DNA of 64,000 bases from Escherichia coli (GTDB lineage: Bacteria; Pseudomonadota; Gammaproteobacteria; Enterobacterales; Enterobacteriaceae), in assembly GCF_003991155.1 (NCBI RefSeq), contig NZ_CP031297.1; one strand, written 5' to 3'. Of this stretch, positions 10,477 to 47,855 are shown in pieces (positions within the stretch are counted from its first letter, which is position 1; each line of letters starts with the position of its first letter). Made by a program: the position numbers and the translations under genes. Below the pieces are notes generated by a model. That model was not told where the DNA came from. It ran no database searches and was given only the letters and a program-made list of their open reading frames with translations.

Positions 10477-10599
10477 CGTGTCGTTCCTCATAAAAAATTG
10501 TCGATGAGCCCATTCTAAAAGGGGGGGGATGGAAAGCTGGTTTCTCAAACTGCCCAAATTGGACAGATAGGCGTGTGTGCGATCTAAAGGTGTTTTGAG

Positions 10600-23099: not shown

Positions 23100-23131
23100 A
23101 AGACACCTTGCCGTTAATCAACGGGTGATAG

Positions 23132-23160
23132 GGGCAGCCTAAAAGCTGCCCTTATTTTTT
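23132..23160 (+). terminator. Intrinsic terminator (GGGCAGC-ctaaaa-GCTGCCC + T-run)
   Basis: GC hairpin + TTATTTTTT. Confidence 0.7.
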
Positions 23161-23206
23161 GGCAAAAAGTCCAGTCATAACAAATTCCAACTATTTCCTT
23201 ATTTGC

Positions 23207-23236
23207 TCAAAAAGGGCACTTCCACAGCCCATGTTT
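23207..23236 (+). promoter_or_regulatory. Motif B variant (GCTC-AAAAA-GGGCAC ... CACAGCCC)
   Basis: Between terminator and giant gene. Confidence 0.3.
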
Positions 23237-23299
23237 ATGCACTCCCTCCCGTAACCTCCAGCATTGGGTTCTTGTAACTCAAAACGAATGGAGAATGCG

Positions 23300-26200
23300 A
23301 TGATCAATTTCAAGCCTAAAATTCCGGCGATGCTTGGGGCTCTGGCGGTTCTTACCGCTGGTGCTGCTCATGCAGAGCTGCTGGAATACACCTTTAAGGC
23401 TCCAGATGGTACGCAACGGTCTCTGACTCCGAATGCCAACTATGCCAACCCAACGGGCAATATCTCGTTTGCCTTGAGTGCCGGTATCGACCGAAAGGTA
23501 AAGATTTCGGTGCTTCGGTCGGATGGAACAGTGGTTTCGACAGCGACCAGCCACCTTCTTGGGGCTACTGATCGCATCACAGTGGGTGGAAAATCCTACT
23601 ATGGTGCGGAACTTCAACTACCAGCTCCAGTTGGTGGGGCATACACTATCAGGGCGGAAATTCTTGCCTCTGATGGTTCTACAGTACAGACGGATGAATA
23701 CCCTCTTACTGTCGATGTGACGCCGCCAACCTACTCTTCGCTTGCCCCGGTTTATAGTAACTATGGGCAGGTTACTAGCGGTGATGTTTGGAAACTGGGT
23801 CTAGGTGGCTCTGAGGATAATGCCTTTTTGCTGTCAGGAATCTCTGATGAGTCACCCATCAAAGGCGTCAAAGCAAAGCTGTATCGTCAAGACGGTTCAC
23901 TCTACAAAGATGTATCCGTGAACTACGATGACGCTAACGGACAAGCTAGACAGTCTTTCCAATCTGGCTTTTTCCCAGCCTCTGACTTGGATGAAGTGTT
24001 TACACTTCAGTTTGAGATAAGCGATAGCGCTGGAAATAGCTATCTTTCACCTCGTCAAAAAGTGATGTTTGATAGCATAACCAATGCTCCGTCTGCACCT
24101 TTTGGTGTTTATGACCCTTCAAGTACAAACAACTTAGGCCCTGGATTAACCGGATTTGTTGCTTACACTGAGGGCATGACAGTTAAAACTAACCCAATCA
24201 AGTTAGCTTGGCGTGTTCCGCGTGATAACTGGCATGAGTATAGAGAAGGTGGGATAAATATGACCAATGCCTTGGGAGAGATGTCCAAGGTAGGAGAAGA
24301 TGCCAGCTATGTTTATCTCGTCACAACCGCACCTTATGGCAATACCGACGGCAATTATTGGCGTTGGGTGAACTTCGGCCAGTGGGGGGGAGGCGGTATT
24401 GCTTATAACCTCACACTCTCTCCATCAGCGCCTAAAAGTCCCAGACTTTTGGGTGTGGACTACAATTACAGTGATATAGGATGGTCTAGTTTTTACCGCT
24501 ACTGGGTGAACAATTCTGTTCTTCCTGTCACTGTTAGTAGTATCCGTGTCAAAGTTGAACCAAGGCCTTACGTTCAAACTGCCGTTCACAGGGGAAGCTG
24601 TGAAATTCCTGTTGGTCAAGATAGCTGCGTGATTGCAAATAGCTTCACAATGGCTAAAGGCACAACAGGGTACGTCCACGATAATGCGACAGTTTTCAAT
24701 CCGGATAAATCTCTTCGCTCGAATCCTCTTTGGGCAGAGGTTAACTGGAACGATCAGCACTACCCTCAGCTAAGTCAGCAGTTCGATCAAAATAGCAAGG
24801 TATTTACCTTATTCGTTAACCAGCCAGGACGAGGCGCTTACTTTGATAGGCTGCGTCTGCGAAGTGCATGGATTGAAGATAGCAAAGGCAACAAGCTGTC
24901 TCCAACTGGTGGGTTAATAGCCAACAACTGGGAGAACTACACTTACCAGTGGGATCTTAAAACTCTCCCTGAGGGGCAATACAGTCTTGTTGCCGCAGCA
25001 GAGGAGATGCACGGGCCTTTAACGCGACAACCAATGTTCCAGATAACGTCTGATAGAACGCCACCAACCATGACACTCAGTGTGGCAGATGGAGCAGCTA
25101 TCCAGACTCTAGATGATGTTGTTATTACCTTGGCTGATGCTATCGACCCTTCACCTAAATTGACCTCTATTGCCCTTGTAGGGGGGCCTGCCAATGACAA
25201 GGTGCAGTTGTCTTGGCGTGAGGAGTCGAAAGGTCGATTCCGCCTTGAGTACCCGGTAATGTTCCCTTCTTTGAAGGAAGGGGAATCTTACACGCTGACT
25301 GTTTCCGGTGAGGATGCACAAGGCAATGCGGTTCAAAAGGCTGTTGGCTTCGAGTACAAACCTCGTCAGGTAATGCTGGCGGATGGGATGGATGGCAAGG
25401 TCATGGTCCCCGCTGTCACTCATGAATTTGTTCATGCAGATGGCAAACGGATCATCGAAACCAAGCCGCTGACGCTCAGTGATGGTGCTGTCGTGACAGG
25501 TTCATACGACGTGTTTGCGACCCTACGTTCTGATGCGAAAGTACCGCTGGTGGTTAATGGGGTGCGTATCGAGCCAGGCCAGACAATGGGGATCATGAGC
25601 CAACATGATTTCGGTGCGTCAGGTGGTCGTTTGAGCATTCCGGTTAAACCTGCTGTTCCTGATGTGGTCGGCTCTTCCAGCCTTCTTGTCATGACCTCCG
25701 CGCCGAACTCACCCATCTTGGTTGTGGACATCAATACCTGGAAAGGGACGGCTAAGCTCTCTGCTGAATCATGGACAATTCGCCAGGTCATTGACCCAGT
25801 GAAAATCTATGCCCTGCCAGAGTCGGGTGTGCCTTGCCGGTTCACCACGAAAGAGGATGTGGCTATGGCCGCAGACCCAATTCGTGACCCGGTGTGTTTG
25901 CTCCAGTGGGACAGAACTCCAGATGAGGCTGAACAAACTACGCAGGACAACAACGGGATGAAAGTTGCTGGGCTGGTGGGGCAGGCTGTGAGCATTGGTG
26001 AACAACCTGTCGAATACAGCCTGTACCTGTTCAGTGGTGACGGTTCCAAGGTAAAAGTTGGGTCTGGCTCTCAGAACCTGACGGTAACTACTGCCTATGG
26101 CTCTGTTGGCTACACCCCGATTGATGACATTGCTCAGGTGAATCGCGTCATTGAAGATTTTGATGTGAACTTCAAGCAGAGCAAGGGGCCAGACTGTTCT

Positions 26201-46577: not shown

Positions 46578-47855
46578 ATGACTAAAGTGAACCATCTACA
46601 AAGCCTCTGTGTTATCCACGTAGACTTTGACATCTGGAGTGGACAAACCCGTTTGTCTGCATCTGATCTCAAGCTGGGCGAGGGTGGTGAAATTCCACCT
46701 GAGAAAGTAGCTCAACTGGGAAGTAAGAAGATCTGTGATCCGGCTAAGCTGAAAGGCTTTCATCGCCTGAAAACAGAAACTCGTCGCCTCCTGCTGAAAT
46801 TCGGTATGCCGTTCATGAACGGATTTGCCGTACCCGTCAGCAAGACCGATGAAATCTGTAACAAGCTGAATGACATCAACTTTCAGTTTAACCAACTGAA
46901 ACAGGATTTCATCAAAGGTTACAACAAAGCCGTGGATGAATGGTGTCAGGAGAACCCTGAGTATGAACGAGCTATCCGTGCCGGAGCCCTTCCAAAGGAA
47001 ACGGTCGAGGAGCGGATTGGCTTTGAGTACCAGGTGTTCATGATCCAGCCTGTGAACGAAGATGAGGCCAACGCCAAACGCCTTAACCGCAAGGTTGAGC
47101 GCCTGGGTGACGATCTCATCTCCGAAGTGGTTCAGGAAGCGAATAAGTTCTATATGGAACGTTTGGCCGGTCGAGACCAATGTGCGGTCACTACTCGGCA
47201 GACACTCCGTAACATCCGCGACAAGGTGGATGGGCTTAGCTTCCTGAACAGCGCTTTTAACCCTCTGGTCAAGCTGCTCGACCAAACCCTCCGGGGATAC
47301 GAGCAACATGCCGATGGCCGAAACATCGTTGCGCCTTTCTTTTATCAGGTCGTGGCCGCAGTGCTGATCATGAGCGAGAGGGACCGCATCGAGCAGTATG
47401 CCAATGGCTCGATTACTGTAGAGGGCATGGCTAATGACATTGGCGGTTCGGGAGCCCAGATGGGGGACCGTTCTAAAGATGAAAAGGCCGAACAGAAAAG
47501 CGATAAAGCCGGTGAGCTTATCCCTGCAACAGAGGGTGGCGAAACCAAGCAGCAACAGGTAGGTGGTACTGAATCTGTTCAATCAGAACAGACTAACAGC
47601 GGTGGTAACTCTGTTGACCTGGATGAAGACATCGACAACTTCTTCAAGAGTTTTGCAGAACGAGGCGAGGGTGAATCGGAAGATGAATCCAATGCCGGTG
47701 ATGTGGTTCGAGAAGAGCGTGTTGATGTTGAGGATGAGCTGGTTTTGCCTGAGGAAACTCCGGTAGAGCAAGAGCCTGTCCAAGAGGAGACGACAGAGGA
47801 GCCTCTCAACCAGGAGCTGCCTAAAACTGACGACGATGGCGACTATTTCTTCTAA
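46578..47855 (+). CDS. Hypothetical protein with acidic C-terminal tail
   Basis: ATG at 46578 with GGAG SD; 425 aa. Confidence 0.8.
   Translation: MTKVNHLQSLCVIHVDFDIWSGQTRLSASDLKLGEGGEIPPEKVAQLGSKKICDPAKLKGFHRLKTETRRLLLKFGMPFMNGFAVPVSKTDEICNKLNDINFQFNQLKQDFIKGYNKAVDEWCQENPEYERAIRAGALPKETVEERIGFEYQVFMIQPVNEDEANAKRLNRKVERLGDDLISEVVQEANKFYMERLAGRDQCAVTTRQTLRNIRDKVDGLSFLNSAFNPLVKLLDQTLRGYEQHADGRNIVAPFFYQVVAAVLIMSERDRIEQYANGSITVEGMANDIGGSGAQMGDRSKDEKAEQKSDKAGELIPATEGGETKQQQVGGTESVQSEQTNSGGNSVDLDEDIDNFFKSFAERGEGESEDESNAGDVVREERVDVEDELVLPEETPVEQEPVQEETTEEPLNQELPKTDDDGDYFF

Follow-up and report, generated by a model that had tools for sequence, protein, structure and literature searches.

orf1832, a predicted secreted Ig-like-domain gene between traA and dsbC of type 1 IncC plasmids, as a probable accessory conjugation factor with a replaceable N-terminal cassette

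RSP and RSP2 of the IncHI1 plasmid R27 are reported to be required for IncHI conjugation, to bind conjugative pili as well as flagella and to need TrhH and TrhA for their release (PMC8730810). According to the same report, a homologue of 1843 amino acids (aa) encoded by the IncA/C plasmid pKAZ3 (ALG87338.1), with the same Pfam layout, was present in the cell-free secretome, and knockout of its gene left conjugation unchanged at 37 °C, strongly lowered it at 25 °C in liquid and gave motility that was not significantly different from that seen with the wild-type plasmid (Hüttener et al. 2022, PMC8730810). The present analysis concerns a related gene, orf1832, at positions 23300..28786 of a 64,000-nucleotide (nt) stretch of Escherichia coli DNA (contig NZ_CP031297.1, assembly GCF_003991155.1), the whole of which is called the window; features are on its + strand unless otherwise indicated. 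A first-pass annotation of the window, made from the sequence without database searches, had described this gene as a terminator-bounded unit for a secreted immunoglobulin (Ig)/PKD-like protein of 1828 aa within a type IV secretion system cluster and had proposed either a mating-pair or surface adhesin or an adhesin inserted as cargo. The observation was confirmed and the interpretation was partly supported. Since the gene, its regulation and its low-temperature conjugation phenotype had already been published, this finding as such adds nothing new, and the modularity of an internal cassette, together with an element that carries two cassettes in tandem, is a modest new angle on a described gene. 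Overall, orf1832, the type 1 allele of vcrx076/orf1847, is probably an accessory factor of IncC conjugation and not foreign cargo.

The window belongs to the backbone of an IncC (IncA/C2) plasmid, and orf1832, named vcrx076 in pVCR94, serves as the marker of type 1 IncC plasmids. A 5.8-kb region matched 976 plasmid records in PLSDB (573 at 99% identity or higher), typed as IncC or IncA, MOBH and MPF_F, and the protein matched P0001, a cluster with 1651 members, at 100% identity and 100% coverage. In published typing schemes orf1832, with rhs1, marks type 1 IncC plasmids while type 2 plasmids carry orf1847 (PMC7652850, PMC6872532); other names of the gene family are vcrx076, MS6198_A094 and, in pKAZ3, ALG87338.1. 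The pKAZ3 allele appears to be the type 2 form, as judged only by its length of 1843 aa, which is also that of the allele at locus L002 and of pVCR94 vcrx076. The placement of an 1828-aa open reading frame between the pilin gene (traA) and dsbC, as first annotated, held throughout. Thus, gene order in IncC and IncA records was traL-traE-traK-traB-traV-traA, then the Ig-like gene, then dsbC-traC and onward, where the gene, with traA on one side and a gene of the DsbC family on the other, carries the annotation Ig-like domain-containing protein, and in the IncC type 1, IncC type 2 and IncA plasmids examined it was always found in that interval.

The reading frame is open from 23264 to 28786. Translation from the ATG at 23300 gives 1828 aa, and GGAG is located 7 nt 5' of this codon (23290-23293). 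An alternative in-frame ATG at 23288 gives 1832 aa, the count from which the published name orf1832 comes. Both ATGs are kept in distant homologues. Because the GGAG Shine-Dalgarno sequence falls inside the first codon pair, the ATG at 23300 is the likelier start of orf1832. The signal peptide seen by the first-pass annotation was upheld as a predicted Sec signal peptide of aa 1-25 (23300..23374), with the sequence MINFKPKIPAMLGALAVLTAGAAHA and a putative AHA|E cleavage site before E. In 50 homologues A23 and A25 are almost invariant, and residues 1-25 are the sole stretch of the structural model of aa 1-800 with a predicted local distance difference test (pLDDT) score below 50.

The predicted transcription unit corresponded to that described for pVCR94. 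In that plasmid, vcrx076 lies outside both the traL-traA and the dsbC-traU operons (PMC4207636). Its start codon is at 47775, a motif for the transfer activator AcaCD is present at 47674-47702 (p 1.7e-11) under a chromatin immunoprecipitation-exonuclease (ChIP-exo) peak, and transcription starts at 47738-47740 by 5' rapid amplification of cDNA ends (5'-RACE) (PMC4207636). Expression by RNA sequencing, in reads per kilobase per million (RPKM), was 3 in ΔacaCD and 2495 with AcaCD (PMC4207636, Table S3 and Dataset S1), and the vcrx076 promoter has also been employed as a lacZ fusion in published work. When these positions were transferred to the window by their offset from the vcrx076 start codon, the predicted AcaCD binding box fell at 23199..23227, with the core TGCTCAAAAAGGGC at 23204-23217, and the putative transcription start at 23263..23265. 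A conserved -10-like element, CCCGTAACCT, is located directly 5' of this start, and the traA-orf1832 intergenic region is 200 nt long in the window as in type 2 plasmids. The box is the upstream copy of the recurrent element that had been termed motif B, and its membership of an over-represented set was evident from matches to the pattern TNYYCAAAWWGGGC with one mismatch allowed, which numbered 11 in the window versus 1.68 expected, a count reached in none of 100 shuffles. All of these matches are on the + strand save the − strand reading of a near-palindromic site at 10551. Conservation in IncA and a distant Enterobacter element covers the AcaCD box, a CCCGTAAYCT element, the leader and the start region AATGGAGA..ATG; in the latter element (E. 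hormaechei; see below), the box is present before both of the tandem gene copies.

Both flanking terminators claimed in the first-pass annotation were recovered. The upstream one (23122..23165), which closes the traL-traA operon, has an extended stem formed by GGGGCAGCC and GCTGCCC(C), followed by a T-run. The simple terminator scan did not flag it, and it was a good terminator by folding (23122-23161; -22 kcal/mol, z -3.84, equalled by 0 of 200 shuffles), with the hairpin followed by TTATTTTTT; this hairpin is also kept in the IncA and E. hormaechei loci. The terminator of orf1832 itself (28801..28832) was found by scan as well as by folding and consists of a hairpin at 28801-28824 and T8, with a 10-bp stem that contains six GC pairs (-16.5 kcal/mol, z -4.80). 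Beyond it, the motif match TGTCCAAATTGGGC at 28845..28858 marks the AcaCD box of the next unit (the dsbC-traC...traU operon) and thus the 3' boundary. In pVCR94, an AcaCD site and a transcription start are likewise present upstream of dsbC (Carraro et al. 2014, PMC4207636). The terminator-bounded unit with its own motif therefore probably corresponds to the published AcaCD-dependent monocistronic unit. Monocistronic expression driven by AcaCD, as demonstrated in pVCR94, would be expected for the window gene from its sequence. Other AcaCD-like boxes on the + strand occur at 848, 10551, 18255, 18926, 28845, 31632, 35883, 40502 and 44065; those just 5' of operon starts include the boxes of traL (18926) and dsbC (28845), and the box at 31632 is inside traC.

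Domain prediction supported Ig-type domains, and the strongest matches were to domains that had escaped the first-pass annotation, i.e., DUF4165 at aa 23-141, a conserved N-terminal β-sandwich (23366..23722; Pfam PF13752, independent E-value (i-E) 7.5e-61), Big_3_2 at aa 142-259 (Pfam, 6.3e-39) and the bacterial Ig-like domain Big_3_3 at aa 545-697 (24932..25390; PF13750, i-E 1.3e-62). The C-terminal PKD-like patterns came down to one weak Pfam PKD match at aa 1586-1648 (28055-28243; i-E 2.4e-4, score 21.4), a segment modeled as one more β-sandwich of the stalk described below. The reported DVTPPT/TPPT repeats were not borne out as a repeat array; the motif occurs at only three sites (aa 139-150, 585-596 and 1053-1060) as a conserved domain boundary, residues D139, P143, D585 and P589 of which are invariant in 50 homologues. 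Pfam matches of the whole protein included no β-barrel, LysM or RTX domain, an NCBIfam scan of the whole protein matched no family, and a phmmer search against all PDB chains gave nothing at E <= 0.01.

AlphaFold2 models, built with alignments of 50 homologues for aa 1-800 and 40 for aa 781-1828, were all-β in both parts. For aa 1-800 the pLDDT was 87.6 and the predicted template modeling score (pTM) 0.73, the latter of which suggests a compact multi-domain N-terminal part. For aa 781-1828 the pLDDT was 87.4 and the pTM 0.40; together with the regular strand pattern, this low pTM indicates a flexible stalk in which about 11 β-sandwich domains of the Ig-like type are modeled one after another (aa ~700-1828, 25397..28783; AlphaFold2, Foldseek and Pfam). 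The best Foldseek matches of the models were long tandem Ig/FnIII arrays only, and the predicted structure was made up of β-sandwich domains only and lacked a membrane anchor. The eight cysteines are all arranged in four close pairs (434/443, 846/866, 966/991 and 1754/1771) that are kept across the family, and in 40 homologues the three pairs of the stalk (846/866, 966/991 and 1754/1771) do not vary. Such pairing would fit an extracytoplasmic, disulfide-bonded protein encoded beside a DsbC gene.

Compared with the alleles that have been studied (pVCR94 vcrx076 and the pKAZ3 homologue, both 1843 aa and assigned to the type 2 form by length), the window allele is the same gene at the same position with the same AcaCD box, terminators and DUF4165/Big_3_2/Big_3_3 layout, but is only about 22% identical to them over aa ~110-615. 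Alignment of type 1 and type 2 DNA located this difference in a replaceable cassette of lower guanine + cytosine (GC) content at 23623..25150 (aa ~109-617), where mismatches set in sharply at 23623 and become sparser past ~25150; protein identity is ~15-40% within the cassette and ~100% outside of it. Within the cassette lie Big_3_2, a β-rich stretch without annotation (aa 260-545) and the first part of Big_3_3. The IncA allele follows IncC type 1 throughout.

A survey of 51 full-length homologues indicated that what separates type 1 from type 2 is a single case of a module swap that is general within this protein family. Thus, 14 cassette classes of 455-518 aa were distinguished, with ~20-35% identity between classes, and cassette similarity was decoupled from backbone similarity (correlation of distances 0.29). 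Six of the classes occur on the IncA/C-like backbone, and five, for the most part shared with it, on a Vibrio-plasmid backbone. In each of 13 pairs whose backbones are 87-98% identical, the low-identity block extended from aa 106-138 to aa 595-687. On an Enterobacter hormaechei chromosome (CP042571; locus L005, 1326-12448), two tandem paralogues of 1828 and 1815 aa are present between a pilin gene and dsbC, and both copies have a terminator and an AcaCD-like box of their own. Identity of the two stalks is 100% over aa 801-1550, and that of the two cassettes 22-27%. From these comparisons the ~500-residue cassette looks to have been exchanged between lineages by recombination. In the available literature, the cassette swap was not described beyond its use as a type 1/type 2 marker; in the searchable library DUF4165 was rare and vcrx076 appeared in methods text only.

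Diversifying selection was considered as the source of the variable region and rejected. For the IncC type 1 and IncA alleles, the ratio of nonsynonymous to synonymous substitution rates (dN/dS) was 0.03-0.08 in the cassette, where dS was highest or saturated. Low dN/dS with saturated dS argues for an old, constrained and exchanged cassette as opposed to a fast-evolving loop, and the variable region thus fits replacement by old, diverged alleles without rapid positive selection. Over the gene as a whole, dN/dS between these alleles was 0.03-0.17 in every segment, i.e., orf1832 is under purifying selection at the level of traA, traV and dsbC.

The N-terminal part of the protein also resembles RSP2. 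In RSP2 (R27_p055 of the IncHI1 plasmid R27), DUF4165, Big and Big_3 are reported at residues 23-142, 143-254 and 537-693 (PMC8730810), as against 23-141, 142-259 and 545-697 in the window protein; the layout of DUF4165, Big, an unannotated region and Big_3 over ~700 aa behind a signal peptide is that of RSP2-like proteins. A tblastn search with the first 800 aa matched IncHI-type plasmid genes (including IncHI2) at 32-33% identity over aa 28-797, in ~2,400 further plasmid records. Both proteins come from MOBH plasmids and, as reported for RSP2 and, on the IncA/C side, for pKAZ3, both are secreted and promote low-temperature conjugation. In contrast with the window protein, RSP2 is described as a protein of 794 aa that lacks the ~1100-aa Ig-like stalk and is partnered with a second Big protein, RSP. 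It also co-purifies with flagella and lowers motility whereas the pKAZ3 homologue is reported to be without a motility effect (PMC8730810), and the interval from the pilin gene to dsbC is not where the IncHI genes are located; in IncHI2 they flank repHI2. Membership in the stand-alone ~800-aa RSP2 class was considered and rejected; with 1828 aa, a stalk of ~11 domains and a homologue that leaves motility unaffected, the window protein is a relative of that class and not a member. On the IncHI2 plasmid NZ_CP050763.1, two RSP2-like Ig-like genes of ~810 aa flank repHI2 in opposite orientations (locus L010, 8929-11385 and 15579-17999), and IncHI-type plasmids have three to four matching places each.

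The proposed role in mating agrees with what is reported for the close homologue, which is secreted and the loss of which lowers conjugation at 25 °C (PMC8730810). As an accessory conjugation factor, orf1832 would be expressed once AcaCD is made and bound to the box at ~23199-23227, as a monocistronic transcript that ends at the hairpin at 28801; these steps were demonstrated in pVCR94 and would apply here by sequence identity. The 1828-aa product would be exported by Sec, as suggested by its signal peptide, and would acquire four local disulfides in the periplasm, in keeping with its eight conserved cysteines and the DsbC gene next door. It would then reach the cell exterior, where the pKAZ3 homologue was found, possibly released via the pilus-assembly apparatus by analogy with RSP/RSP2 of IncHI. 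Salmonella is not known to have a type II secretion system, and this, together with detection in the secretome of strain SL1344, would argue that release is provided by the plasmid. Outside the cell, a long flexible stalk of ~11 Ig-like domains is predicted to bear the compact N-terminal multi-domain part. Mating in liquid at environmental temperature would be made more efficient, as reported with the type 2 allele at 25 °C, and the most likely action would be binding to a surface structure, such as the pilus or the recipient surface, in a way that stabilizes donor-recipient contact. The cassette (aa ~110-615), swapped by recombination between lineages, is proposed to set the binding target.

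Several observations weigh against this account. The effect at 25 °C is reported from three replicates (P = 0.042) with no complementation described (PMC8730810), and it was obtained with the type 2 allele, the cassette of which is only ~22% identical to that of the window. A transposon-library study of the IncC plasmid pMS6198A at 37 °C, as cited in PMC8730810, scored the gene as non-influential for conjugation, and some natural IncC plasmids have lost the gene or retain a truncated form; published tables list IncC plasmids with no or only partial orf1832/orf1847 (PMC7652850, PMC6872532). Dispensability at 37 °C is consistent with such natural deletions and truncations. SXT/R391 elements, which have closely related transfer machinery, do without the gene at this position. 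Finally, the protein has no recognizable anchor or outer-membrane translocation domain, and for the IncA/C alleles the literature gave no binding partner, surface localization or adhesion phenotype.

The cassette may, more tentatively, be a swappable module of binding specificity, a proposal that we hold to be possible but on balance somewhat doubtful. Different classes would bind different surface structures on recipients, or different pilus or flagellar types, and a swap or a tandem copy would tune or broaden the range of partners at environmental temperatures. The proposal is suggested by the presence of different cassette classes on near-identical backbones and by the tandem dual-cassette element. 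It has parallels in other systems. Thus, TraN variants of F-like and IncC plasmids are donor-surface proteins in which a variable part sets partner recognition, and the cassette of orf1832 is comparable as a swappable module within a conserved frame; TraN also determines the Sfx exclusion group in IncC. In the PilV shufflon adhesins of IncI plasmids, partner recognition is likewise determined by a variable part, but variation of orf1832 takes the form of allelic replacement or tandem duplication and not of a shufflon. Neither TraN nor PilV is related to orf1832 in sequence or fold, and for orf1832 specificity is a hypothesis. If the cassette sets specificity, mating specificity would have a determinant in addition to TraN, and the cassette would help to account for why plasmid lineages differ in host range or transfer efficiency; its modularity makes the hypothesis testable. 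Exposed proteins of this kind have been proposed as vaccine or nanobody targets (PMC11268884), and antibody to one cassette class probably would not cover the others, which would matter if the specificity proposal is true. More generally, IncC plasmids are major vehicles for the genes of carbapenemases and cephalosporinases, and the control of their spread outside warm-blooded hosts is therefore important.

The diversity of cassettes could also be read as the product of an arms race, in which the protein would coat the pilus or cell surface as a shield that stabilizes the pilus in the cold or masks it from pilus-specific phages, predators or immunity. RSP and RSP2 of IncHI are reported to bind the conjugative pilus, with pilus stabilization suggested by the authors (PMC8730810), the IncHI protein is antigenic and exposed, and the movement of at least 14 deeply diverged cassette classes between backbones is a pattern also known from surface antigens. 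However, the low dN/dS within a cassette class (IncC type 1 versus IncA) gives no sign of ongoing positive selection there, and a phage or immune phenotype is not reported for this protein. We therefore consider a shield unlikely.

The suggestion that the gene is an adhesin inserted as cargo, which would serve the host in biofilm formation or in colonization of hosts or surfaces and would have landed in a hotspot between traA and dsbC, was not supported. This site is clearly permissive, as indicated by two observations, i.e., that in the SXT/R391 sister elements the equivalent interval, traA-s054(dsbC), is the variable hotspot HS2 and that ISEcp1-blaCMY inserts into the corresponding gap of IncC. 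An architecture of tandem Ig-like domains is typical for surface adhesins, and the gene is reported to be dispensable for conjugation at 37 °C. Part of the gene is also lower in GC, as the first-pass annotation had noted by eye; GC content was 0.43-0.50 in codons 101-600 as opposed to 0.51-0.57 elsewhere in the gene, and 0.471 in the type 1 and 0.46 in the type 2 cassette as opposed to 0.536 for the remainder. The difference is thus limited to the internal cassette, and foreign origin of the whole gene was rejected. Further evidence against cargo includes occupation of the same place in IncC type 1, IncC type 2 and IncA, purifying selection at the level of neighboring transfer genes with exchange seen only in an internal cassette of ~1.5 kb, membership in the AcaCD regulon with direct activation of ~800-fold by this transfer activator in pVCR94, the reported decrease in conjugation at 25 °C upon knockout in pKAZ3 and the location of homologues of other genera beside tra genes. 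In contrast with HS2, gene content of the interval does not differ within IncC/IncA, where only the internal cassette varies. A cargo adhesin is, in our estimate, improbable. A brake on motility, by which the protein would bind flagella and slow swimming so that mating pairs form, as for RSP/RSP2 of IncHI1, is highly improbable. In its favor, the N-terminal 800 aa share the domain layout of RSP2, which is reported to co-purify with flagella and lower motility. Against it, the pKAZ3 knockout reportedly caused no significant change in motility, which largely refutes this role for the type 2 allele, and hosts without flagella, such as Klebsiella (the most frequent host genus among the matching plasmid records), also serve as donors and recipients of IncC plasmids.

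With respect to other long adhesins, the giant proteins SiiE, LapA/RTX and intimin/invasin also contain long arrays of bacterial Ig-like domains, and the Foldseek matches included SiiE (2yn3) as well as a repeat of a large adhesion protein (6xi3). The window protein differs from these families in having a Sec signal peptide and in lacking their anchors or secretion signals. Assignment as an intimin/invasin, an autotransporter or an RTX/type I secretion giant adhesin was rejected; the Pfam matches were to Ig-like and PKD domains only, the models were strings of β-sandwiches and the predicted signal peptide is N-terminal and of the Sec type.

Comparison of gene order beyond IncA/IncC divided the expectation of conserved synteny. 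Within these plasmids the gene is fixed between traA and dsbC, but the interval is variable in SXT/R391 and the homologues of distant plasmids are located elsewhere. Homologues in other genera adjoin F/H-type tra genes, such as traF-traH-traG in the case of a Photobacterium plasmid and trhF-trbC-traU-traN in the case of Pseudoalteromonas; a 1352-aa Pseudomonas relative is located in unannotated DNA. Variability of HS2 in SXT/R391 and the different tra neighbors in distant plasmids thus identify the gene as an accessory of this plasmid lineage, and orf1832 is best described as a lineage-specific accessory conjugation factor, not as a universal part of the type IV secretion system.

Many records matched only from query position 94, i.e., window position 23193, and this boundary (23192..23193, no strand assigned) is the insertion site of the ISEcp1-blaCMY-blc-sugE island of many other IncC plasmids, which is empty in the window. 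At locus L009, ISEcp1, blaCMY-16, a lipocalin gene and sugE are present between traA and the Ig-like gene, and the island has been placed 'downstream of traA' (PMC7652850). Insertion occurs 6 bp 5' of the AcaCD box, so that the orf1832 promoter is left intact. The 159 bp at 23193-23351 are 100% identical in non-IncC plasmids (H24 and H25), to which they were possibly spread by ISEcp1 carriage.

Altered forms of the locus were also noted. In the E. coli plasmid NZ_LT985218.1 (locus L004, 6201-8621), a deletion has cut the type 2 allele short at ~aa 783; dsbC and traC are lost with it, and the shortened allele is fused to a DUF3150/VWA region. In the Vibrio parahaemolyticus IncC plasmid NZ_MF627445.1 (55097-62727), the matched stretch is ~1.8 kb longer and contains a group II intron reverse transcriptase gene (ltrA), which points to an intron in or beside orf1832. 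Within the transfer operon of the window, between a trbC-like gene and traU, an EAL-domain gene (cyclic-di-GMP phosphodiesterase type) is present at ~34170-34841 (locus L001, 20071-20742).

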